NCBI GenBank assembly: GCA_016181935.1
Contig: JACOYI010000004.1
Location: 5,292-69,291 of the forward strand
Length of the DNA stretch: 64,000 bases
Direction of reading: 5' to 3'
From: Candidatus Niyogibacteria bacterium
GTDB taxonomy: Bacteria; Patescibacteriota; Minisyncoccia; HO2-45-28
Shown here: positions 4,406 through 31,254 of the stretch, one piece after another
Position numbering within the stretch: the first letter of the stretch is position 1
How the letters are laid out: every line of letters begins with the position of its first letter
Made by a program: the position numbers and the translations under genes
Notes under the pieces: model-generated
The model's input: only the letters and a program-made list of their open reading frames with translations
Told to the model about the DNA's origin: nothing
Database searches by the model: none

Positions 4406-4963
4406 CTAAAACTTCACCTTGACCGGCTCGCGCTCGGCCGCCGAGTCGATCTGGAAGAATTTTTCTTTCGAGAATTTAAAAAGCGAGGCAATGAAATTCG
4501 CGGGGAACGAATCCACCATCGTGTTCAACGCCATCACCGTGGAATTGTAGAACCGGCGCGCCGCCTGTATCTTGTTCTCCGTATCCGCAAGTTCGCGCTG
4601 AAGTTCGACAAAGTTGGTATTCGCCTTAAGGTCGGGATAATTTTCGGAGACCGCAAAGAGCGATTTTAACGCCGAGGTCAGCATATTGTCCTTGTCCGCG
4701 TGGTCGAGCGCCGAACCCGATGCGCCCATCGCTTCGGTCCGCGCGCGCGTCACATTTTCGAGCACGCTTTTTTCGTGCGCCATGTATCCTTTCACCGCCT
4801 CGATGAGATTCGGAATGAGGTCGAACCGCCGCTTGAGTTGCACATCAATATCCGAGAGCGCCTCGTGCGAACGGAACCGGAGCGTCACAAAACGGTTGTA
4901 CGCGTAGACGGCCCAAAGAACCGCGAGAACAACGACCCCTAGTACGAACCAAAGTATTTGCAT
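4406..4963 (-). CDS. lemA: LemA family protein
   Basis: 185 aa; N-terminal TM then LemA-like sequence; LemA-HtpX pairing is common. Confidence 0.8.
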   Translation of the reverse strand: MQILWFVLGVVVLAVLWAVYAYNRFVTLRFRSHEALSDIDVQLKRRFDLIPNLIEAVKGYMAHEKSVLENVTRARTEAMGASGSALDHADKDNMLTSALKSLFAVSENYPDLKANTNFVELQRELADTENKIQAARRFYNSTVMALNTMVDSFPANFIASLFKFSKEKFFQIDSAAEREPVKVKF

Positions 4964-5003
4964 GTATTCAGACTACCACTCGAGCAAATAAAAACAAGAG
5001 CCG

Positions 5004-5453
5004 CTAATGCGACTCTTGCGTATTTCTGCCTTCGGAAAACGGGAGCAGAGTGCCAACCAACAGCAACTCCGCCGCAAAGGACGTGAAAAGAACCAGCAGA
5101 AGCTGAAGGAATACGATCAAGGCCTGCGCGGGCCAACTTGCCGAATCAGAAAACTCGGGCACAATGGCCGGACTCATGACCATCGCGAACCAGCCCAAAA
5201 TCACCACACTTACCATAAAAACGAGCGTATGCGACCATCCCACGATGCCGTTCGGCATCGAAATCCTGATGTTGCAGTCTTCGTCGAGTTTTTTCGTGAA
5301 CTTTTTCTGGAACACCACGAATTTGATCGCGCCGCATACGGCGCCGATGAGCAAAAGCATCGAAACCACCTGCACGCCCCGCAACGCAAGAACCGCGAAG
5401 AAAAAGATACTGGCGAAGAACAAGGCGAACATGAACGCCGGATACCGCTCCAT
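5004..5453 (-). CDS. hypothetical membrane protein
   Basis: 149 aa, 4 predicted TM segments. Confidence 0.5.
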   Translation of the reverse strand: MERYPAFMFALFFASIFFFAVLALRGVQVVSMLLLIGAVCGAIKFVVFQKKFTKKLDEDCNIRISMPNGIVGWSHTLVFMVSVVILGWFAMVMSPAIVPEFSDSASWPAQALIVFLQLLLVLFTSFAAELLLVGTLLPFSEGRNTQESH

Positions 5454-5575
5454 GGGTGCCTCCTTATCAAAGAGTGCTGAAAATACCTTAAATCAAAATA
5501 TTCGCTATGTCAATGAACCAAAAACGCCTAATAAAGAAAACCCCTTGCCGAAGCAAGGAGTTGCGAACCGGAGAA

Positions 5576-6199
5576 CTATTTGACCAAGACCACGGGACAC
5601 GAATGTTCTTTGAGCGCGCGGAAAAATGCGGCAAGGAGCGGCACGCGGCCGAAAACCATGCCGATTGACGCTATCATAACCGCGAACAGCATAAGCGCCA
5701 AAATAAGGGATATGATCCAAAACCCCATAACGCCGCCCCCCTCCATGTCCTTCAGTTGGCTGAGCGGGACCCCGCGAGAAAGATAGAAGATGCCTGCGGC
5801 GAATCCCCAGAGCAAATATGCCAAAAACGCCACGACGACAACCACGACCAGCAACGCTACGCCGACCCAGACGGTCTTCCAGAAAATGGCACACCCCGAG
5901 AGCCGCCCCGGGTGCCACTTGTCTCCGTAGAACTCCTTCATCAGGCGGTAATACCCCGAGTTGTGGGGAATGATGAGGGCGCCGGACGATGGGTCAGCCG
6001 CGAACGTGGCGAAGCTCGACACGAAAAGGAAGATGGCGGGAATGAAAAACAGCGAGCTTCCTGTTGCCGCGAGTAGCGTGACGACCATCGGACCAGCTTC
6101 CGAAACGCCGAGCTCCGACGCCACCCAGCCCGCAAACCACGCGGATGCCGCCATGATCAGCAAAAGACCTGCGCGAAAGACGTTCAGACGAGAAAGCAT
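5576..6199 (-). CDS. hypothetical membrane protein
   Basis: 207 aa, multiple hydrophobic helices. Confidence 0.5.
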   Translation of the reverse strand: MLSRLNVFRAGLLLIMAASAWFAGWVASELGVSEAGPMVVTLLAATGSSLFFIPAIFLFVSSFATFAADPSSGALIIPHNSGYYRLMKEFYGDKWHPGRLSGCAIFWKTVWVGVALLVVVVVVAFLAYLLWGFAAGIFYLSRGVPLSQLKDMEGGGVMGFWIISLILALMLFAVMIASIGMVFGRVPLLAAFFRALKEHSCPVVLVK

Positions 6200-6280
6200 G
6201 CTGTTCTCCTTTGCGAGTTAATGTTCAAAACAAAGAATCCAATGCCATTAGAGCATCGGATTCTTTGAAAGTCAACTCTT

Positions 6281-6316
6281 AAGGGTTACCCTTAGGATCG
6301 GATAAGGGTAACCCTT
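6281..6316. repeat. REP-like palindromic element (AAGGGTTACCCTT-N10-AAGGGTAACCCTT)
   Basis: Inverted 13-mers with 10-nt spacer aggatcggat, between groEL stop and next gene. Confidence 0.7.
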
Positions 6317-6326
6317 GGGGGGGCGC

Positions 6327-7985
<1,659 letters not shown>

Positions 7986-7994
7986 CTAGTCGAA

Positions 7995-8297
7995 TTAGTT
8001 AATGATTGCGAGGATGTCCTCCTCCTTTACGATGAGATAATTCTTGCCGTCGAGTTTCAGCTCGGTCGGGCCGTATTTGGAAAACAACACGCGGTCGCCT
8101 TTTTTCACGGCGAGCGGGATCAATTTCCCTTCATCGGTATGACGGCCCTTGCCCGTTGCAATGACCTTTCCCTGCTCCGGACGCTCCTTTTCGGCGGTAT
8201 CCGGAATCACGAGGCCGGACTTGGTGCGGCCCTCCGTGTCCTCTTTTGACAAGGGCTCCACCAGCACCCGATCCCCCAATGGTTGAACTTTCAGCAT
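7995..8297 (-). CDS. groES: co-chaperonin GroES
   Basis: 100 aa Cpn10. Confidence 0.97.
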   Translation of the reverse strand: MLKVQPLGDRVLVEPLSKEDTEGRTKSGLVIPDTAEKERPEQGKVIATGKGRHTDEGKLIPLAVKKGDRVLFSKYGPTELKLDGKNYLIVKEEDILAIIN

Positions 8298-8338
8298 AAA
8301 AATGTGGTGAAAGAATGCTAATTGTTTTTACAAGACGC

Positions 8339-8366
8339 ATTATAGCGAGCGCCCGAAAATCGTCAA
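8339..8366 (-). promoter_or_regulatory. sigma70-like promoter of groES-groEL (TTGACG-N16-TATAAT)
   Basis: Minus-strand TTGACG (8361-8366) and TATAAT (8339-8344) about 45 nt upstream of groES ATG. Confidence 0.5.
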
Positions 8367-8405
8367 GTCCCGCCCGGACGCTCGCCCCCAAAGATGGTCC
8401 TTTTC

Positions 8406-8442
8406 AAGGGGAGTCCTTAGGAATCGGAAAAGGACTCCTCCT
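8406..8442. repeat. REP-like palindromic element (GGGGAGTCCTT-N11-AAGGACTCCTCC)
   Basis: Inverted repeat with spacer aggaatcggaa; same architecture as the other copies. Confidence 0.65.
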
Positions 8443-8454
8443 AAGGTATCCTTA

Positions 8455-8483
8455 ACAAAAAAACCGCGCTTTGTTCAGCGCGG
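8455..8483 (-). terminator. rho-independent terminator
   Basis: Minus strand CCGCGCT-GAACAA-AGCGCGG followed by TTTTTTT; overlaps stop codon of 8475..8714 gene. Confidence 0.7.
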
Positions 8484-8714
8484 CCAGTTGCAACTCACCG
8501 AGTCATAACCCAATCCCACAACACACTCGACACCACTCGACAAGCGAAGATAGTAAACAAAACCCGTATCGGTGATCAGTATCTTGCGAATTTCTACGGG
8601 CATTTCGTGCTTTGTGATTTTCTGAATTGTTTTCCATTCTTCCTTGCTCGCCTCACAGCCGCCAAGAATACCGATGATCGCCACAACGACCAAGACAATC
8701 GCCCATCGTTTCAT
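8475..8714 (-). CDS. small secreted lipoprotein, SCNWP C-terminal family
   Basis: 79 aa from ATG 8712-8714 (AAGGAG SD); signal peptide with lipobox ILGGC; C-terminus ...SVSCNWPR; paralog of 9769..10044. Confidence 0.5.
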   Translation of the reverse strand: MKRWAIVLVVVAIIGILGGCEASKEEWKTIQKITKHEMPVEIRKILITDTGFVYYLRLSSGVECVVGLGYDSVSCNWPR

Positions 8715-8759
8715 CACATTCTCCTTTGATGACAAGGTTCGTTCGGGGACTGAAAAGAA

Positions 8760-8793
8760 TATAGTACATCTTAAAATCCCTGTCAATCCTTTG
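8760..8793 (-). promoter_or_regulatory. strong promoter AAGGATTGACA-N17-TATATT
   Basis: Minus-strand TTGACA (8783-8788), 17-nt spacer, TATATT (8760-8765); first of four promoters sharing AAGGATTGACA. Confidence 0.5.
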
Positions 8794-8841
8794 CCAAGCA
8801 TGATACGATGGCAACGAGAAGAACTTTTTATCGGAGGAGCC

Positions 8842-9240
8842 ATGGCCTACAGCGAAAAGGTCCTCGACCATTACGCGAATCCCAAAAACGTGGGGACGCT
8901 CGACAGGAACGCCCCCGATGTCGGCACCGGACTGGTGGGTGCCCCCGAATGCGGCGACGTGATGAAACTGCAGATACAGGTGGACGAAAATGGCGTCATC
9001 GTGGACGCGAAATTCAAGACCTTTGGCTGCGGCTCGGCCATCGCGTCCTCCTCGCTCGCCACCGAATGGATCAAGGGCAAAACGCTCGAGGAGGCCGAGA
9101 AAATCAAAAACGTGGACATCGTGGAGGAGCTGTCGCTCCCACCCGTGAAGATCCACTGTTCGGTTCTCGCGGAGGACGCTATCAAATCCGCCATCGCGGA
9201 TTACAAGAAAAAACACGGCATTGAAGCTCCCGCGCCATAA
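8842..9240 (+). CDS. iscU: Fe-S cluster assembly scaffold IscU/NifU-like
   Basis: 132 aa from ATG 8842 (GGAGGAG SD); conserved cysteines and PPVKIHCS motif. Confidence 0.85.
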   Translation: MAYSEKVLDHYANPKNVGTLDRNAPDVGTGLVGAPECGDVMKLQIQVDENGVIVDAKFKTFGCGSAIASSSLATEWIKGKTLEEAEKIKNVDIVEELSLPPVKIHCSVLAEDAIKSAIADYKKKHGIEAPAP

Positions 9241-9243
9241 AAA

Positions 9244-9275
9244 TAGCCGCTAGCCATGGGCTGGCGGTTTTTTAG
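9244..9275 (+). terminator. rho-independent terminator after iscU
   Basis: GCCGCTAGCC-ATGG-GCTGGCGG hairpin followed by TTTTTT. Confidence 0.6.
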
Positions 9276-9287
9276 TTTAGAAAAAAA

Positions 9288-9524
9288 TTACCAAACACGC
9301 ACCGGACTTAATGGATGCAAAGGGTTCGCTGGACTTAGTGGGCTCAAAGGATCCAGAAGACTCTGAGGATTAGACTGATCTTTCCCGTGTTCCTCCGCTA
9401 GACGCTCGCGCGGCCTAATGTCGGACAAAATAATCGTACCGAGCACAGCGCCGAATATCATTATTGCCAATAGAACGATGCCAAAAATCATCCAGGGATC
9501 CCTCTGTTTGTTGCTCATAGACAC
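9288..9524 (-). CDS. small membrane protein with LSPLSPANPLHPLSP repeat
   Basis: 78 aa; one TM; preceded by AAGGATTGACA promoter (9570-9600) and 9-bp palindrome ATCGACATC-C-GATGTCGAT (9600-9618). Confidence 0.35.
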   Translation of the reverse strand: MSMSNKQRDPWMIFGIVLLAIMIFGAVLGTIILSDIRPRERLAEEHGKDQSNPQSLLDPLSPLSPANPLHPLSPVRVW

Positions 9525-9726
9525 GCCCCCTTCTGCTACGCGCTTACTGAATCTCCCCCACCAACCTATACAGTACTTAGAAAAGTGTCAATCCTTAATT
9601 CTATCGACATCCGATGTCGATAATTTTATCGGGGCGGTTTTTTCTTTTGCAATGAAAAGTCGGTCTAGAATAGCATCGTACACTTAAAATACGCTATAGC
9701 GTATTTTAAGTGTATGGGACGAATTG

Positions 9727-9763
9727 TTAAAAAAATAAATCCGCGCTCGCTTGGAACGCGGAT
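9727..9763 (-). terminator. rho-independent terminator
   Basis: Minus strand AATCCGCG...CGCGGATT hairpin followed by TTTATTTTTTT; near-identical copy at 10176-10204. Confidence 0.65.
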
Positions 9764-9768
9764 TCGGA

Positions 9769-10044
9769 CTACTTGGCCTGCGGCCAGTTGCAGGAAAGAC
9801 CCGCATGCGAATAGGACAAAACACAGGGGAGACCGTCGGGAAAACGAAAGCGCAGAGCGAGGATTATTGTCTCCCCCTTCTCGTTCAGAATTTGAAATGT
9901 TTGCCCAGATAGAACGGGAATTTCTTGCGCCGCCACCACTTCGCGCGGCTGGATGGCGGGTGTTTTGGTCAACCAAAGCGCGGCTGCAACAACAACGAAC
10001 AGCAAAGGAATCCAACCGTAAAGCACCCAATTTCGTTTCCACAT
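9769..10044 (-). CDS. small secreted protein, SCNWP C-terminal family
   Basis: 91 aa; signal anchor; C-terminus ...GLSCNWPQAK; aligns with 8475..8714 product over E-PV...C...SCNWP. Confidence 0.5.
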   Translation of the reverse strand: MWKRNWVLYGWIPLLFVVVAAALWLTKTPAIQPREVVAAQEIPVLSGQTFQILNEKGETIILALRFRFPDGLPCVLSYSHAGLSCNWPQAK

Positions 10045-10125
10045 TTCGCACTCCTTTCAATGTGCGTTTTTTCCGGACTGCTTTTCCAAATACTGTATAC
10101 AAAACTTCCGTGGGTTTGTCAACCA
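10045..10125 (-). promoter_or_regulatory. duplicated promoter + 5' leader (TTGACA-N17-TATACA, AAGGAG SD), copy 1
   Basis: About 80 nt nearly identical to 10608-10690; minus-strand ggTTGACA...TATACAgtatttggaaaagcagtccggaaaaaacgcacattgaaaggagtgcgaaATG. Confidence 0.6.
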
Positions 10126-10175
10126 TCACCGCAATCCTAGCCGCATTCCTACGGAATGCGGCATTTACTTTCAAT

Positions 10176-10204
10176 AAAAATCCGCGCTCACGGGGAACGC
10201 GGAC
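10176..10204 (-). terminator. rho-independent terminator
   Basis: TCCGCG..CGCGGA hairpin + T-run on minus strand; paralogous to 9727-9763. Confidence 0.6.
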
Positions 10205-10214
10205 TGACAAGACC

Positions 10215-10607
10215 TTACGGATGAACTGCGCTTCTTTTTACAGAAAGCTTCCGGACAAGAAACGTGGTCCCACCGTATACCGTCACAATGCCAGCGGGAA
10301 GCGTGGTTACAAAAAAAAGAAACTGGGACTCTCCTCCCCCATTACTTTCAGCGATGGCGAGGATGCCGATGAAGGTAGCGACAAGGAGGCCGATGACGAA
10401 AGCAGAACCATCTCCATCGGGGTCGATGCTGGTAAGGAAAAGAATGACGGCGAGGTAGAAAACAGCCGCGGAAACGATAAAGAGAACGAAGGAACCGGAA
10501 ACGGCGGCAAGGGCGAAGCCGTATTTCATATAGATGATCGTCCCGATAAGCAGCTGAACCGCGAAAACGCCCGTACTCCAAAACCAGATGATCGTCTTCT
10601 GACTCAT
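10215..10607 (-). CDS. small hydrophobic membrane protein
   Basis: 130 aa from ATG 10605-10607 (AAGGAGG SD), chosen by homology of the upstream region to the 10044 gene; 3-4 TM helices. Confidence 0.5.
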   Translation of the reverse strand: MSQKTIIWFWSTGVFAVQLLIGTIIYMKYGFALAAVSGSFVLFIVSAAVFYLAVILFLTSIDPDGDGSAFVIGLLVATFIGILAIAESNGGGESQFLFFVTTLPAGIVTVYGGTTFLVRKLSVKRSAVHP

Positions 10608-10690
10608 AACGCCTCCTTTTAATGTGCGTTTTTGCCGGACTGCTTTTCCAAATACTGTATACAAAACTTCCATGAGTTTGTCAATCCTTC
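10608..10690 (-). promoter_or_regulatory. duplicated promoter + 5' leader, copy 2
   Basis: cccgaaggaTTGACAaactcatggaagttttgTATACAgtatttggaaaagcagtccggcaaaaacgcacattaaaaggaggcgttATG on minus strand. Confidence 0.6.
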
Positions 10691-10740
10691 GGGCATACTC
10701 AGGATTGACCGTGAGTACGCCGAATCGGTCAACATCCGCC

Positions 10741-10824
10741 AAGGGTTCCCCTTAGGAACGGATAAGGGTAATTCCCCCAAGGGTAGTCCTTTTCTGATTC
10801 CTAAGGACTACCCTTGGGGAATCC
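10741..10824. repeat. two adjacent REP-like palindromic elements
   Basis: AAGGGTTCCCCTT-aggaacggat-AAGGGTAATTCCC then AAGGGTAGTCCTT-ttctgattcct-AAGGACTACCCTT. Confidence 0.7.
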
Positions 10825-10831
10825 TTTGAGA

Positions 10832-13738
10832 TCAATCCCTCGCAAGCCATTGGCCGGTGTAGGATTTTTTGTTGCGCGCGAGTTCTTCGGGAGACGCGGA
10901 CGCCACCACCATGCCGCCTTTCTCGCCTCCTTCGGGACCGAGGTCAATGACCCAATCCGCATTTTTAATGACATCCGGATTATGCTCGATGACAAGCACG
11001 GTATTTCCCTTTTCCACCAGCGCCACGAGTACGCCCAACAACTTCCGCGTGTCTTCAAAATGCAGACCGGTGGTCGGCTCATCCAAAATATATAAGGTTT
11101 TCCCGGTGGATTTACGAGCAAGCTCTGTTGCCAATTTCACGCGCTGGGCCTCGCCGCCCGAAAGTGTCGTCGCCGCCTGCCCCAATTTCATATACGACAG
11201 CCCGACCTCGACGAGCGTTTCGATGCGCGCTTTCAATTGCGGAATGTTTTTGAAAAACGCAAGCGCCTCCTCCGCCGTCATATCGAGAACCTCGGCGATG
11301 GTTTTCCCGTTGTATACAATAGAAAGGGCTTCGGCGTTATACCGCGTGCCTTTGCATTCCTCGCACTCCACATAAATATCGGGCAAAAAATGCATTTCGA
11401 TGCGTTTGACGCCCTGCCCCTCGCATTCCTCGCACCGCCCGCCTTTGACATTGAAACTGAATCGCCCCGCTTTGTAACCGCGCGCTCTGGCATCGCGCGT
11501 TGCCGCGAACAGATCGCGGATGAACGTGAACGCGCCCGTGTAGGTCGCAGGATTGGAGCGGGGCGTGCGTCCGATGGGCGACTGGTCCACCACGATGACC
11601 TTGTCGACATGGTGGACGCCCTCGATGGTTTTGTGAACGCCCGGCGCCTCACGCGAGCCGTAAAAATGCTGGGAAAGGGCACGCGCCAGAATGTCGTTGA
11701 CAAGCGTGGACTTGCCCGAACCCGACACGCCCGTAACACAGACGAATTTGGCCGTCGGAATTTCGACAGCGATGTTTTTTAAATTATGTTCCGCGGCTCC
11801 GCGAACAGTAAGCATTTTGGCTTTTTCGTGGACACGCGTGGCGCGCGCCCCCGCATTCCCCGCCTTCACTTCGCGCTGACCCGACAGATATTCGCCTGTC
11901 AGCGTTTTTGCTTTCAATAATTCTTTGTACGTTCCTTCAAAAATAACTTCCCCGCCGTGACGCCCCGCGCCGGGGCCGAGGTCGATGATCCAATCCGCAT
12001 TCGCCATCGTATCGCGGTCGTGCTCGACCACAATGACCGTGTTGCCGAGGTCGCGCAGATTTTTGAGTGTCTGAATCAAACGGCTGTGATCGCGCGGATG
12101 CAAACCGATGGACGGCTCATCGAGCACATAGATGACGCCGGAAAGACCGGAGCCGATCTGGGTCGCGAGCCGCACCCGCTGGCCCTCCCCGCCCGACAGC
12201 GTCGCGCTCGACCGGTCGAGCGTCAGGTATTCGAGTCCCACATCCAACAAAAATTGGAGACGCCGTACGATCTCTTTTGCGAGCGGCTTTGCGATGGCTT
12301 TCGTTTTTTGGCTTGAAAGTTTTTTCTCGAATGCGCGCATGAATCCGATGGCGGACGCGCACGGAAACGCCGAAACATCCGCGATGCTTTTGCCGTCGAG
12401 ACGCACCGCGAGCGCCTCGGGTTTCAATCGCCGCCCCTCGCAGGTCGGACATCGTTCGATCCGCATATAACGCTCGACCTCGGCGCGCGTCCATTCGGAA
12501 TCCGTTTCCTTCCAGCGGCGCTCCAAATTCGGAATGATGCCCTCAAAACTGGAGGCACGCTGGAGGCTGGGAGCTGGGAGCTGGGAGCTGGGAGCTGGAG
12601 ATTCGCCGCACAAAAGAATATCAATGATTTTTTGCGGAAGATCTTTGACGGGAACATCCAAAGAAAATTTGTACCGCTTCGCCAGATCCTCGAGCATCCA
12701 CCAATACCACGATTGCCGGCCCACGCGGTGTGCAGAGCGTGCCCACGGCTGGATGGCACCCTCCGAAAGCGTCAGATTTTTATTCGGTAAAACCAATTCC
12801 GGATCCACCTCGAGCCGCGAACCCAATCCGGTGCATGCGGGACATGCGCCGAACGGACTGTTGAACGAAAACAGGCGCGGCTCGATCGCGGGAAGCGAAA
12901 TGCCGCACACGGGGCAGGCAAAATGCTCGGAGAAGATCATTTCCGGAAATATTTTTTTGGCGCCTGACGCATCATCCGCGCTCGCCACGAGCACGATGCC
13001 CTTGCCGAGTCCGAGCGCCGCTTCGAACGAATCGCGCAGACGCTCTCGGTCGAGATCCTTGCCGATAACGATGCGATCCACAACGACCGCGATGGAATGC
13101 TGACGCTTGGGGTCGAGCTCCAGATCGAGCGCTTCATCCGTGCGCATCACGCCGCCGTCCACCCGCACGCGCAAAAACCCCTTCTTTTTCAATTCCTGCA
13201 AAATTTTTTTGTGTTCGCCTTTGCGGCCCGTAATGACCGGAGCGACGATCATGGCCAGCGCCCCCGACGGAAGCCCCGATACTTTTGAGAGCATTTCATC
13301 GATCGTTTGTTTTTTGACCGCCTGTCCGCATTGGGGACAATGCGGCTCGCCGAGGCGCGCAAAAAGTACGCGCAGGTAATCATAAATTTCGGTGATGGTG
13401 CCTACGGTGGAGCGCGGCGTGCGGGCTACCGACCGCTGGTCAATGGCGATGGCGGGCGATAATCCATCCATGGACTCCACGTCCGGTTTTTCCCGCACGC
13501 CCAAAAATTGCCGAGCATAACTCGACAAGGATTCCACGAACCGCCGTTCGGCCTCGGCATAGATCGTATCGAACGCAAGCGACGATTTGCCCGAACCCGA
13601 AAGGCCGGTGATGACAATGAGTTTATTTTTTGGAATATCCAGCGAAACATCCTTGAGGTTGTGGGCTTTCGCACCCCGAATCCGGATGACATCGGTGGCG
13701 GGCGTAGGCATAAAGCATTCATTATATAAACGTGTCAA
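10832..13738 (-). CDS. uvrA: excinuclease ABC subunit A
   Basis: 968 aa; two ABC ATPase modules, zinc fingers, LSGGE signatures. Confidence 0.97.
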   Translation of the reverse strand: MTRLYNECFMPTPATDVIRIRGAKAHNLKDVSLDIPKNKLIVITGLSGSGKSSLAFDTIYAEAERRFVESLSSYARQFLGVREKPDVESMDGLSPAIAIDQRSVARTPRSTVGTITEIYDYLRVLFARLGEPHCPQCGQAVKKQTIDEMLSKVSGLPSGALAMIVAPVITGRKGEHKKILQELKKKGFLRVRVDGGVMRTDEALDLELDPKRQHSIAVVVDRIVIGKDLDRERLRDSFEAALGLGKGIVLVASADDASGAKKIFPEMIFSEHFACPVCGISLPAIEPRLFSFNSPFGACPACTGLGSRLEVDPELVLPNKNLTLSEGAIQPWARSAHRVGRQSWYWWMLEDLAKRYKFSLDVPVKDLPQKIIDILLCGESPAPSSQLPAPSLQRASSFEGIIPNLERRWKETDSEWTRAEVERYMRIERCPTCEGRRLKPEALAVRLDGKSIADVSAFPCASAIGFMRAFEKKLSSQKTKAIAKPLAKEIVRRLQFLLDVGLEYLTLDRSSATLSGGEGQRVRLATQIGSGLSGVIYVLDEPSIGLHPRDHSRLIQTLKNLRDLGNTVIVVEHDRDTMANADWIIDLGPGAGRHGGEVIFEGTYKELLKAKTLTGEYLSGQREVKAGNAGARATRVHEKAKMLTVRGAAEHNLKNIAVEIPTAKFVCVTGVSGSGKSTLVNDILARALSQHFYGSREAPGVHKTIEGVHHVDKVIVVDQSPIGRTPRSNPATYTGAFTFIRDLFAATRDARARGYKAGRFSFNVKGGRCEECEGQGVKRIEMHFLPDIYVECEECKGTRYNAEALSIVYNGKTIAEVLDMTAEEALAFFKNIPQLKARIETLVEVGLSYMKLGQAATTLSGGEAQRVKLATELARKSTGKTLYILDEPTTGLHFEDTRKLLGVLVALVEKGNTVLVIEHNPDVIKNADWVIDLGPEGGEKGGMVVASASPEELARNKKSYTGQWLARD
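12571..12605. repeat. tandem heptanucleotide repeat (CTGGGAG)x4 plus flanking variants inside uvrA
   Basis: ctggagg ctgggag x4 ctggaga, about 42 nt; encodes SSQLPAPSSQLPAPS in the uvrA frame. Confidence 0.7.
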
Positions 13739-13756
13739 GACGATGTCAATGAATAA

Positions 13757-13813
13757 GGAACCCCCAAAGGGTAGTCCTTAGGAACGGAAAAGGACTACCC
13801 TTTGGGGGTTCCT
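13757..13813. repeat. REP-like palindromic element (23-bp perfect inverted repeat, 10-nt spacer)
   Basis: GGAACCCCCAAAGGGTAGTCCTT-aggaacggaa-AAGGACTACCCTTTGGGGGTTCC in the uvrA/uvrC divergent region. Confidence 0.8.
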
Positions 13814-13832: not shown

Positions 13833-15215
13833 GTGCCATCCGTACTCGAGAACACCAAAACCATTCCGGATTCGCCGGGCGTCTATTTTTTCCGCGACCG
13901 CGCGGGAACCGTCGTTTACGTCGGAAAAGCGCAAAATCTCAAGATGCGCCTGAATTCGTATTTCACGATAACCGGCGCCGAAGGCGATACCCGCAAACAG
14001 GCCATGCTCAAAGAAGCCACCTCCTTTGACTGGCAGGAATTGGGTTCGGACATTGAAGCGCTCATCCGCGAAGCGGAACTCATCAAAAAGCTCAAGCCGA
14101 AATATAACGTCCTGATGCGCGACGACAAAAACTTTTTTTACGTCGGCTTCACGCGCGGAAAATTTCCGCGGGTATTCATTACGCATCAACCCGATGAAGG
14201 GAGCACATCGGTAGCGCATCTCGGTCCGTACACGGATGGCGGAGCGCTCAAGCTCGTTTTAAAATCCCTCCGCAAGGCGTTCCCGTATTGCGAATGCGCA
14301 CGCTCGTCTCGCGCTCTGCATGACCGGCCATGCGAAAACGCCGAACTCGGCCGGTGCGCCGGCATCTGCTGCCTGAAAAAAAAGAAATGGCGCGATTTTT
14401 ACCCCGATGCCGAGGAACGCATTGACCGGTATCGCAAAAATATCGCGCTTTTAAAACGCATCCTTGCCGGGCGTTATACGGCTGTAACGCGGCGGCTGAA
14501 AAAAGAGATGCGAAAACTCTCGGAATCGCGCCAGTACGAGGAAGCTGCGGCCTTGCGCGACCAGATCGATGCGCTGGAAAATATTTTCGAGCATCGCGCA
14601 TTTCTGTCGAGGGACGACGAGGCGTGGCGCGAAAAGGGCCTTCGGCATCTCCTGACGGCGCTCGGCGCGAAAAGCGTCAAGCGCATCGAGGGATACGACA
14701 TTTCGAACATCCAAGGGACGGACGCGGTCGGTTCCATGGTGGTCTTCATCGACGGCGCGCCCTACAAAAACGATTACCGGCGGTTCAAGATCCGTTTGCC
14801 GGCGCGTCCCAACGACGTCGCCATGATCCGCGAGATCGTCACGCGCCGGATCGAACACCGCGAGTGGCCATTGCCCGCCGTCATGGTCATTGACGGAGGA
14901 AAAATGCAGTTGAACGCCGCGCTCGCGGCGGTCCAGCACCTGAAAAAAATCCGCGTCGTCTCTCTCGCAAAACGCGAAGAGGAACTTTATTTGCCCAATC
15001 GCACCACCCTTAAATTGAAGGAGAGCTCACAGCCCCTGCTTCACCTGATGCAGGCCGTCCGCAATGAGGCCCATCGCTTTGCGCTCGCCTACCATCATAA
15101 GCGCCGTAAAAAAACATTGTTCAAAGGAAAGCGCACAACAAAAGTCGCCCAAAGAGTGATCCTTAAGAATCGGAGCAAAAAAAAAGTTCGCGCCAAGGGT
15201 AGTCCCCAAGGGTAG
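13833..15215 (+). CDS. uvrC: excinuclease ABC subunit C (lacks C-terminal HhH domain)
   Basis: 460 aa; N-terminal GIY-YIG (GVYFFRDRAGTVVYVGKAQNLKMRLNSY), UvrBC region, RNase H-like endonuclease domain; C-terminus runs into a REP copy (..RAKGSPQG*). Confidence 0.85.
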   Translation: MPSVLENTKTIPDSPGVYFFRDRAGTVVYVGKAQNLKMRLNSYFTITGAEGDTRKQAMLKEATSFDWQELGSDIEALIREAELIKKLKPKYNVLMRDDKNFFYVGFTRGKFPRVFITHQPDEGSTSVAHLGPYTDGGALKLVLKSLRKAFPYCECARSSRALHDRPCENAELGRCAGICCLKKKKWRDFYPDAEERIDRYRKNIALLKRILAGRYTAVTRRLKKEMRKLSESRQYEEAAALRDQIDALENIFEHRAFLSRDDEAWREKGLRHLLTALGAKSVKRIEGYDISNIQGTDAVGSMVVFIDGAPYKNDYRRFKIRLPARPNDVAMIREIVTRRIEHREWPLPAVMVIDGGKMQLNAALAAVQHLKKIRVVSLAKREEELYLPNRTTLKLKESSQPLLHLMQAVRNEAHRFALAYHHKRRKKTLFKGKRTTKVAQRVILKNRSKKKVRAKGSPQG

Positions 15216-15263
15216 TCCATATCTCGTTCCTAAGGACTACCCTTTGAAAAGGACTACCCTTAG
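15195..15263. repeat. REP-like cluster (two direct + two inverted AAGGGTAGTCC units)
   Basis: AAGGGTAGTCC-cc-AAGGGTAGTCC-atatctcgttcct-AAGGACTACCCTT-tgaa-AAGGACTACCCTT. Confidence 0.8.
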
Positions 15264-30127: not shown

Positions 30128-30472
30128 GTAAACTCTGCACTGTGTCGGCTCACTCGGGCTTTCCAAGGGTTTCCCGAGGTCCGACTGCACCGGGTACCTG
30201 TACACGCCTTGAGGCAACTGGCGATAGTACAGCTTGGCGGCCAGAAAGCGGGTGCCTCTCGCTGCAAAGAACCGATTTATGGAGGAACGCAATCGCAGGA
30301 TTTTGGCAGCCGGGGCGGTGGCCGCCGAACTTAAAATCCCCCGAACTCAGAACGTCCTGCGATTGCGCGAAAGGGTCGGCGGAGATTCAGGCGTTGAGGC
30401 CCATCTCGTGACTTCCGTGGGGCCGCGTCTGACCGGATCCCCGCCGATTCGTTGAGTGAAAGAACTTCGGAA

Positions 30473-30553
30473 AGCGCCCGACGGGAATTGAACCCGTGAC
30501 CCCCGATCCAACACGCGTGCCGGATGGTGCTCTACCAGCTGAGCTACGGACGC
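30473..30553 (-). tRNA. tRNA-like gene with aberrant anticodon arm (possible pseudogene or non-canonical tRNA)
   Basis: Canonical acceptor GCGTCCG/CGGGCGC, D-arm GCTCAGCTGGTAGAGC, T-arm ACGGG-TTCAATT-CCCGT; anticodon region replaced by 8-bp stem ATCCGGCA/TGTTGGAT with 4-nt loop CGCG; 81 nt. Confidence 0.4.
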
Positions 30554-30967
30554 TTGCTTATGTGAAGTGGAGCAGGAAGGGTGGGTACGGTACGGCGTTC
30601 GCATACCTAGGATTTAGGACCACGGACCCTGCCGCGGAACGCTAGCCGCCTTCTGCGGCCCACCCCGTCCTGCATGTGAATCTGAAAAAGTTGAGTGGCT
30701 ATAGGGCTTGAGACGTCCCCTTCCATTTGGAAGTGATCATCCTCCGCGCAGCGCTTCCGTCGAAGTCCACGCCTTTCACTACCCCTCAATGACACCTAAC
30801 CGATGGTCACCAAGGTTAGTATAGAAAACTCAACTACAGCCACTCTGAAGAGGAATCTAGCACCTTCCTCTTTCCCTGTCAAGAGGTGGCGGCAGGCAGC
30901 CCACAAAGTAACAGCCGGGAAAGGAGGAGAACCCACCGCTACCCGAGAAGCCGCCTTGCCGCCAGAA

Positions 30968-31039
30968 AGCGCTTGGCCGGATTCGAACCGACGCTCGGGG
31001 TTTTGCAGACCCCCGCCTTACCAGCTTGGCTACAAGCGC
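30968..31039 (-). tRNA. tRNA-Cys (anticodon GCA)
   Basis: Acceptor GCGCTTG/CAAGCGC, anticodon stem GGGGT/ACCCC with loop CTGCAAA, T-loop TTCGAAT. Confidence 0.85.
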
Positions 31040-31254
31040 TTAAGAACTTTTCGTTTTCGCACGCTTTCGCGCGCCTGTTTTTGATATTTCAACCGCTCCA
31101 CCAGCGGCAATGAAACAAAATCTCCGCGATCAATGACGTCCGCGATCTTTCTTTCGTCTGAAGTCAACGGGACCGCATCCATCGACAAGTCGGTCAGGAT
31201 CCGCGTGATTTTTCCCATCGCACACCTCCGTTCGTAACAACTTTATTCAATCCC

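Follow-up and report, generated by a model that had tools for sequence, protein, structure and literature searches.

Predicted small envelope-protein genes between uvrA and groES in a Candidatus Niyogibacteria genome

The uvrA-groES interval and its relatives

We analyzed an interval of ~2.4 kb between uvrA and groES in a 64-kb stretch of DNA (hereafter the window) from Candidatus Niyogibacteria, a bacterium of the Candidate Phyla Radiation (CPR). The interval holds four minus-strand genes for small membrane or exported proteins, three convincing and one doubtful, numbered here 1 to 4 from the groES side (Table 1). A preliminary description of this DNA had proposed a cluster of four such genes in an episymbiont. 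The four minus-strand open reading frames (ORFs) were all found where that description placed them, and the affiliation of the organism with the CPR agrees with the setting it assumed. It had passed over iscU, a housekeeping gene for an Fe-S scaffold protein, which lies on the opposite strand within the cluster and interrupts it. Sequence features bear out the small membrane or exported character of the products: gene 1 encodes a lipobox, genes 2 and 3 each encode a hydrophobic helix at the N-terminus, and gene 4 encodes four helices. For none of the small proteins was an above-threshold match obtained in Pfam, NCBIfam, PHROGs, PADLOC, or the sequences of the PDB, in line with the earlier statement that they belong to no obvious named family. 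A search of one literature library returned nothing specific on small proteins of Niyogibacteria.

A public protein collection contains the products of genes 1 and 3, IscU, and GroES as proteins of a Candidatus Niyogibacteria metagenome-assembled genome (MAG) (MBI2038988-90), encoded on a contig of 89,786 nucleotides. Look-ups of exact copies of these four proteins on contigs returned no record. The exact products of genes 2 and 4, with either start, are absent from a 15-billion-protein collection that contains their annotated neighbors, and a search of proteins with a gene 4 profile gave no self-hit; genes 2 and 4 therefore appear to lack public annotation. As gene 4 has distant homologs (below), it is probably a gene missed by automatic annotation.

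The order uvrC-uvrA-groES-groEL is the same in a Patescibacteria MAG (L001) retrieved by a UvrC scan of a genome collection (UvrC 60% identical). There, groES lies only 104 nucleotides past uvrA and the intervening DNA of the window, which we refer to as the islet, is missing. Five contigs from another species (L007-L011), reached via GroES proteins at least 90% identical, share 82-84% nucleotide identity with the window across groES-groEL and LemA. In these contigs a divergent gene for a PDZ protein occupies the region upstream of groES, and the groES promoter marks the end of the homology to the window. No relative of genes 1-3 is encoded at any of the relatives' loci examined, and blastn of positions 9241-10784 against plasmids and phages gave no match. 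Because none of these loci has the islet, and because a profile of genes 1 and 3 finds nothing elsewhere (below), the islet is, on sequence comparison, specific to one lineage.

Table 1. Features of the uvrA-groES interval and of related positions in the window
Feature	Position	Strand	Remarks
uvrA	10832-13738		uvrA-side neighbor of the islet
Lineage-specific segment (islet)	8437-10784		Between uvrA and the groES promoter
groES promoter, then groES-groEL	Beyond hairpin 8400-8446		Other flank
Gene 1	8475-8714	-	79 aa; HYT22_01755; predicted lipoprotein
Gene 2 (doubtful)	9288-9524 or 9288-9518	-	GTG start, 78 aa, or ATG at 9518, 76 aa
Gene 3	9769-10044	-	91 aa; HYT22_01765; predicted signal-anchored or secreted paralog of gene 1
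Gene 4	10215-10607	-	130 aa; predicted four-helix membrane protein
iscU, Fe-S scaffold	8842-9240	+	Pfam NifU_N 3e-54; TIGR01999 6e-67
Gene 1 promoter	8758-8791	-	AAGGATTGACA-N17-TATATT; 11/12; divergent from iscU
Gene 2 promoter word AAGGATTGACA	9586-9596	-	-35 perfect, -10 poor
Promoter and 5' untranslated region module, copy A (gene 3)	10051-10122	-	From TTGACA -35 to Shine-Dalgarno sequence
Promoter and 5' untranslated region module, copy B (gene 4)	10613-10689	-	Includes AAGGA word
Inverted AGGATTGAC copy	10701-10709	+	9-nt perfect inverted repeat with gene 4 -35 region; 12-nt spacer
Gene 1 terminator	8462-8485	-	-17.9 kcal/mol; stem overlaps last codons and stop, then T7 run
Bidirectional terminator of convergent iscU and gene 2	9245-9269	Both	-19.5 kcal/mol (+), -13.5 kcal/mol (-)
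Gene 3 terminator	9737-9765	-	-18.4 kcal/mol; near-copy of that of gene 4
Gene 4 terminator	10179-10205	-	-16.6 kcal/mol
Perfect palindrome ATCGACATC-C-GATGTCGAT	9603-9621		Upstream of the gene 2 AAGGA word, at a distance of 6 nt
36-nt perfect palindrome, two 18-nt halves without spacer	9679-9714		Between gene 3 terminator and gene 2 promoter
Perfect palindrome CCGCATTCC-N3-GGAATGCGG	10141-10161		Between gene 4 terminator and gene 3 promoter
REP-like hairpin, groES-side islet border	8400-8446		Arm 8405-8436 (32 nt)
Two REP-like hairpins, uvrA-side border	10734-10774 and 10771-10823		-35.1 kcal/mol
REP-like positions	4384, 6281-6316, 8406, 10779-10815, 13767-13802, 15195-15261, 48627, 49195, 49402, 49478, 50281, 57602, 58454, 58529
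Orphan multi-helix membrane ORFs	5004-5453 and 5576-6199		In second lineage-specific insertion

The small proteins and their coding status

The N-terminus of the gene 1 product (MKRWAIVLVVVAIIGILGG-C20) combines a positively charged n-region with a hydrophobic h-region. The following lipobox, ILGG-C20, fits a PROSITE-like rule requiring [LVI][ASTVIG][GAS]C within the first 15-35 residues, past a K/R n-region and a hydrophobic h-region. The mature part comprises 59 residues, contains two more cysteines (C64 and C75), and has the C-terminus SCNWPR. Compared with Sec signal peptides, which are composed of n-, h-, and c-regions and have an AxA-type cleavage site, the gene 3 product has n- and h-regions, with a 20-residue hydrophobic helix (residues 6-26) and a T-P-A site, a combination that fits either a cleaved signal peptide or a signal anchor. 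Past the helix are four predicted β-strands, two cysteines (C74 and C85), and the C-terminus SCNWPQAK.

Genes 1 and 3 are paralogs, as judged by BLASTP (3e-7) and by a local alignment score of 62 compared with 20 ± 4 for shuffled sequences. Their common pattern is R-x3-G-x2-C-V-x8-S-C-N-W-P, with the cysteine spacing C-x10-C in both. The paralogy suggested earlier is thus upheld; the common end is SCNWP only and not LSCNWP as had been stated. At the DNA level the two genes have just 13 consecutive identical nucleotides, and the conserved serine is encoded by AGT in one and by TCC in the other. Similarity at the protein level combined with a switch of serine codon family is a pattern as produced by selection on the protein. 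Read from the two sequences, this protein-level paralogy excludes the possibility that genes 1 and 3 are chance ORFs. No homologs of either were found among 5.8 billion proteins or in tblastn-confirmed scans of JGI metagenome contigs with the gene 1/3 profile. The family phrog_3641 was considered as a relative and rejected, its matches to the two proteins being weak (E 0.06 and 0.014) and tblastn against 50,697 phage records giving only noise.

A separate likeness was seen between genes 2 and 3 (9390-9494 and 9925-10029). Both encode a transmembrane helix followed by I-(R/Q)-P-R-E, with 28.6% identity over 35 amino acids, and the same segment contains a DNA repeat of 19 nucleotides with 79% identity. 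On this weak indication, gene 3 may be a mosaic, with an N-terminus resembling that of gene 2 and a C-terminus resembling that of gene 1.

The gene 4 product has four hydrophobic helices. A phmmer search of 1.84 billion representative sequences identified the homolog P0003 (E 1e-4), which aligns over nearly the full length (residues 7-121), and a two-sequence profile detected P0004 (3.5e-9), so that the family has three known members. Its conserved motifs, W..T.VFA.Q..I.Y and F..F...LP.G..TV.GG, lie in the first and last helices. A search of metagenomes with the family alignment yielded no confirmed relatives. In L004 (region 3-1057) the gene for P0003 is located 85 nucleotides downstream of a partial NifU_N gene and 82 nucleotides upstream of a 4Fe-4S ferredoxin gene, all on one strand, and that for P0004 is placed between rnc and smc. 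The gene 2 product would consist of one clean 23-residue transmembrane helix and a Pro-rich tail with PLSP repeats.

Coding potential was assessed with a codon log-odds score trained on 16 long ORFs of the window, which gives 0.32 ± 0.14 per codon for coding frames and -0.41 ± 0.27 for other frames. Genes 1 and 4 each score 0.28 per codon and are clearly coding-like. In each of the four genes, the frame chosen here scores higher than the other five. Competing ORFs were dismissed. Specifically, a plus strand ORF of 302 amino acids antisense to genes 3 and 4 (9714-10622) scores -0.125, has no Pfam match, and spans promoters and terminators, and longer-start versions of gene 1 (122 amino acids) and gene 4 (175 amino acids) would include their own promoters. 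The paralogy with its serine codon switch, the coding scores, the homologs of gene 4, and the full sets of expression signals described below indicate that genes 1, 3, and 4 are real genes and not chance ORFs.

Expression signals and bordering repeats

The gene 1 promoter is TTGACA-N17-TATATT, and those of genes 3 and 4 are TTGACA-N17-TATACA. The pattern TTGACA-N17-TATAYW matches three times in the window, each time at one of these genes, and was not found in 100 shuffles. In a test for sigma-70-type promoters (-35 and -10 hexamers 16-18 nucleotides apart) the sites of genes 3 and 4 each match 10 of 12 consensus positions, and that of gene 1 matches one more (Table 1). Promoter-like sites reaching at least 10/12 number 21 in the window, with five of them within 8339-10684. 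The remainder include perfect or near-perfect sites before uvrA and groES, indicating that the organism uses canonical promoters. High expression, as proposed earlier, would be a reading of the promoter consensus, from which the -10 elements of genes 2, 3, and 4 depart.

Several features that the preliminary description had ascribed to all four genes apply to three of them. Consensus promoters and good Shine-Dalgarno sequences are present at genes 1, 3, and 4, whereas gene 2 has a perfect -35 hexamer with a poor -10 and an SD-like GGGGG located 7 nucleotides before the ATG at 9518. The shared upstream word AAGGATTGACA has exactly three occurrences, at genes 1, 2, and 4; gene 3 has GATGGTTGACA in its place, without the AAGGA part. 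The shorter word AGGATTGAC occurs five times, compared with 0.43 expected, and four of the five copies are in the islet.

The likeness of the promoters, described earlier as near-identical, is that of genes 3 and 4 and belongs to a 72-nucleotide direct repeat (10051-10122 and 10613-10684, 94% identical) that runs from the first base of the -35 hexamer to the Shine-Dalgarno sequence. The ORFs of these two genes have no similarity in DNA or protein despite their shared shells. Their common leader is unstructured (folding z 0.2-0.6). Rfam covariance models run against positions 7900-11000 gave two sub-threshold chance matches only, with no family for the leader or the palindromes. From its sequence, the leader looks like an open, translation-friendly region and not a riboswitch. 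A 19-nucleotide word that spans the -10 and the start region in genes 3 and 4 (TATACAGTATTTGGAAAAG; 10081-10099 and 10643-10661) recurs in inverted form at 9567-9585 with 17 of 19 positions matching, within the -35/-10 interval of gene 2. This inverted copy may be a shared operator or a coincidence.

A GC-rich hairpin with a U-run just past the stop codon, as expected of an intrinsic terminator, was found in all four units (z -2.9 to -5.0). Genes 1, 3, and 4 have terminators of their own, as had been proposed. However, gene 2 shares its terminator with iscU, the one hairpin serving both genes from opposite sides, and in the gene 2 direction it is the weakest of the four. The terminators of genes 3 and 4 are indeed near-copies, being 84% alike over 31 nucleotides. 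Both perfect palindromes reported upstream of -35 boxes are real; the one at 10141-10161 was placed exactly, but the other lies at 9603-9621 and not at 9600-9618. The 36-nucleotide palindrome (-23.3 kcal/mol, z -7.2) is unique in the window and had been missed. It overlaps a 10/12 promoter-like site on the minus strand (9730-9703).

The preliminary description had also missed the hairpin repeats that bracket the islet. A 32-nucleotide inverted repeat (8405-8436 and 10785-10816, 94% complementary) encloses exactly the lineage-specific DNA. The idea that the two arms occur only here, as the ends of a mobile or invertible element, was considered and rejected, as short-word BLAST revealed a dispersed family. 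The core AAGGGTAGTCCTT has 20 matches in the 64 kb with at most two mismatches, compared with 0.45 expected. Long copies of the hairpin also lie past groEL, in the uvrA-uvrC interval, and where uvrC ends. In an alignment of six long copies the loop AGGAAYCGGAA is conserved and the 19-bp stem is 95% paired, with seven pairs altered on both sides, a result equaled by none of 500 shuffles.

Short copies have the form CCCAAAGG-GTAGT-CCTTTGGG, and those at 48627 and 49402 flank an ORF on the minus strand (48660-49385) that matches Pfam Y1_Tnp above the cut-off (7e-8). The best NCBIfam model for this ORF is NF047646, for the REP-associated tyrosine transposase (RAYT; REP, repetitive extragenic palindromic), with a score of 39 bits against a cut-off of 80, which it does not reach. 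The many extragenic palindromes and the flanked Y1 transposase gene found here are the arrangement expected of a REP/RAYT system. One copy of the core AAGGGTAGTCCTT lies in frame within the ORF. DnaA-box-like words beside the short copies were considered as a replication origin and discounted, as they recur as part of the repeat unit. The REP-like family was not seen in the relatives' loci or in viral contigs, and a search of one literature library found no report of REP/RAYT in CPR bacteria. Beside the arms at the islet borders no target-site duplication is visible, and 8437-10784 contains no recombinase gene, both of which would be expected of an element with terminal inverted repeats. The sequences of the bordering hairpins are best read as those of genome-wide REP-like elements at gene ends, not as dedicated ends of a mobile element. 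In principle, recombination might have made use of them.

Positions 4965-6326 hold a second insertion specific to this lineage, in place of the 63-nucleotide groEL-LemA spacer of the congener L007. It contains two orphan membrane ORFs (Table 1) and has a REP-like hairpin at its border (6281-6311).

Some further observations concern the neighboring genes. In the relatives (L007-L011, and L001 at 4588-4691) an inverted repeat resembling CIRCE (controlling inverted repeat of chaperone expression) lies between the groES promoter and the start codon, in the form TTAGCGCTC-N9-GAGTGCCAA or TTGGCATTC-N9-GAGTGCCAA. In the window (8298-8370) the CIRCE-like left arm TTAGCATTC alone is left, and the groES leader is shorter than those of the relatives. 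A 12/12 promoter, TTGACA-17-TATAAT, is located inside the program-listed uvrA ORF (13709-13749, minus strand). As the likely true ATG of uvrA, at 13711, is just 9 nucleotides past this -10 and has no Shine-Dalgarno sequence, the uvrA mRNA may be leaderless or nearly so. Elsewhere in the window there are two tRNA-Cys(GCA) genes 400 nucleotides apart (30472-30554 and 30967-31040), one of which is unusually long at 83 nucleotides.

Interpretation and comparison with known systems

We interpret the locus as a lineage-specific islet of separately transcribed genes for small envelope proteins (genes 1, 3, and 4), and give this interpretation a probability of about 0.65. The islet would have been inserted between uvrA and the groES promoter and would comprise iscU and four separate transcription units on the minus strand. 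The gene 1 product would be exported and lipid-anchored at Cys-20 via the Lgt/Lsp pathway, and the gene 3 product would be its Sec-exported or signal-anchored paralog. Both proteins would expose a β-rich domain of ~45 residues on the outer side of the membrane, with a C-x10-C disulfide closing it and SCNWP at its end. Gene 4 would encode an integral membrane protein with four helices, from a family with few members. If gene 2 is translated, its product would be a bitopic protein with a Pro-rich external tail. Genes 3 and 4 use duplicated regulatory shells, each consisting of the 72-nucleotide promoter and leader and the 31-nucleotide terminator, around unrelated ORFs. The set is best viewed as envelope or surface proteins that evolve fast, are specific to the species, and are each singly expressed. 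CPR bacteria rely on contacts with other cells, and the majority of their envelope proteins are uncharacterized orphans. A role of the islet proteins in host contact is possible, on purely speculative grounds.

A number of observations weigh against this interpretation. The AlphaFold2 models of the gene 3 and gene 4 products have low predicted local distance difference test values (57 and 53, respectively), which makes statements about their folds weak. Searching the window by tblastn with the E. coli Lgt and LspA proteins found nothing credible. The coding score of gene 3 (0.10) is borderline, just above both 5% tails, and the conserved T at the end of the -10 hexamer is missing from the TATACA of genes 3 and 4. 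The source genome is a MAG. The relatives retrieved are other species or more distant organisms, so the absence of the genes from them is no test of purifying selection within the species. The preliminary description had taken a lack of conservation in closely related genomes as a sign of chance ORFs; the genes are indeed absent there, yet genes 1, 3, and 4 are backed by the internal evidence given above. The case against gene 2 goes further, and its reality as a gene is doubtful. Its score of -0.13 falls below the 5th percentile of coding sequences (0.05), neither of its -10 candidates (TATAGG at 15 nucleotides or TAGGTT at 17 nucleotides) is good, and it has no homologs among the 5.8 billion proteins searched, with its exact sequence also missing from the 15-billion-protein collection. 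Spurious ORFs of ~80 codons are numerous in the window, and the G+C content at third codon positions is 0.51-0.59 in the islet ORFs compared with 0.64 in core genes. Gene 2, or less probably gene 3, might then be a chance ORF or a young proto-gene in a transcribed spacer, giving no product or a non-coding RNA, and for gene 2 we regard this as a serious alternative at somewhat below even odds. It has to be set against the best-of-six frame of gene 2, its transmembrane helix, the SD-like GGGGG, the AAGGATTGACA word, and the terminator directly past its stop codon. For the other ORFs it is opposed by the paralogy of genes 1 and 3 as proteins and by the homologs of gene 4, and no Rfam family was found in the region.

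Other explanations address how the islet arose or what it does. The 32-nucleotide inverted repeat brackets precisely the DNA missing in relatives, a RAYT-like Y1 transposase gene is flanked by the same core word, and the second insertion likewise has a border hairpin. The islet could on these grounds be cargo that was moved or flipped via recombination between inverted REP-like hairpins, either by REP/RAYT translocation or as an invertible segment. We nevertheless consider this unlikely: the hairpins are dispersed, so that two copies at gene ends are expected anyway; the islet has no visible target-site duplication and no recombinase; and no islet in the alternative orientation was recovered from any collection. 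RAYTs are known to mobilize REPs and not multi-gene cargo, which also counts against such movement. About equally improbable is a broader proposal, in which modular expression shells copied around unrelated or new short ORFs, in islets at REP-like borders, would provide a route to new surface proteins; it draws on the RAYT-like transposase in this genome and on the second insertion of orphan membrane genes across groESL. The location of the P0003 gene beside NifU_N and ferredoxin genes on the same strand, and of gene 4 ~1 kb from iscU in the same islet, might point to gene 4 as a small membrane partner of the IscU/NifU scaffold and to the cluster as partly an Fe-S locus. This has a rather slim chance of being correct, as a NifU gene is near only two of the three known family members, gene 4 and iscU are on opposite strands with two units intervening, and the association was noticed after the fact. 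No IscS-like gene was found in the window. The least probable explanation is an antagonism locus, in which gene 3, gene 1, or both would encode Sec-exported, disulfide-containing bacteriocin-like peptides, with gene 4, the lipoprotein, or both conferring immunity. The mature products are small (~55-60 amino acids) with one predicted disulfide and adjoin a small four-helix membrane protein, and the strong-looking single promoters, strain-specific distribution, and fast sequence divergence would all fit. However, a double-glycine leader is lacking, neither an ABC exporter nor an enzyme for modification lies nearby (the flanking genes being uvrA, groESL, and iscU), Pfam, NCBIfam, and PADLOC gave no match, and a lipid-anchored paralog suits a surface protein better than a diffusible toxin.

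The islet, read as a set of envelope-protein genes, shows rapid turnover of such genes between close species, and small envelope proteins whose genes each have a promoter could be convenient to pursue by transcriptomics or proteomics in enrichments. The gene 4 family, if its link to NifU were true, would represent a previously unrecognized membrane partner of IscU/NifU.

Small membrane proteins of orphan type are common in CPR genomes. The islet resembles the ORFan small membrane and surface genes of CPR/Patescibacteria in its short products, N-terminal hydrophobic segments, lack of Pfam matches, restriction to one species, and housekeeping flanks. It differs from them in that its units have an explicit near-consensus promoter and their own terminator, and two units share shells around unrelated ORFs. 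Gene 1 matches bacterial lipoproteins (substrates of Lgt and LspA) in its n-region, h-region, and lipobox I-L-G-G-C20, whereas its mature part is only 59 amino acids long and has no known domain. The bordering hairpins, which are not part of the small envelope-protein genes themselves, are similar to the REP elements, bacterial interspersed mosaic elements, and RAYTs of Proteobacteria in being repeated extragenic palindromes with a GTAG core tetranucleotide, paired inverted copies, and a flanked Y1 (HUH) gene. Here, in contrast, they occur in a CPR bacterium, with a transposase that does not reach the RAYT cut-off and a conserved 11-nucleotide loop in the long form.

Sec-dependent class II bacteriocin/immunity clusters offer a parallel in their small, one-disulfide exported peptides, multi-helix neighbor, and strain-specific spread. 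However, the islet has no known leader type, exporter, or family match, and one of the paralogs is predicted to be lipid-anchored. Integron cassette arrays similarly line up short, unrelated ORFs on one strand, with repeated non-coding modules in between. Integron cassettes are promoterless, whereas the islet genes have their own promoters; the islet has no integrase ORF in or next to it and no attC, and its repeats are promoter-leader and terminator sequences. On present evidence the islet is a descriptive addition to these systems and involves no new mechanism. All of its components (sigma-70 promoters, Shine-Dalgarno sites, intrinsic terminators, a lipobox, and REP-like repeats) are conventional as judged by sequence; less usual are the copied shells around unrelated ORFs, the density of palindromes before promoters, and the two apparently unannotated ORFs.

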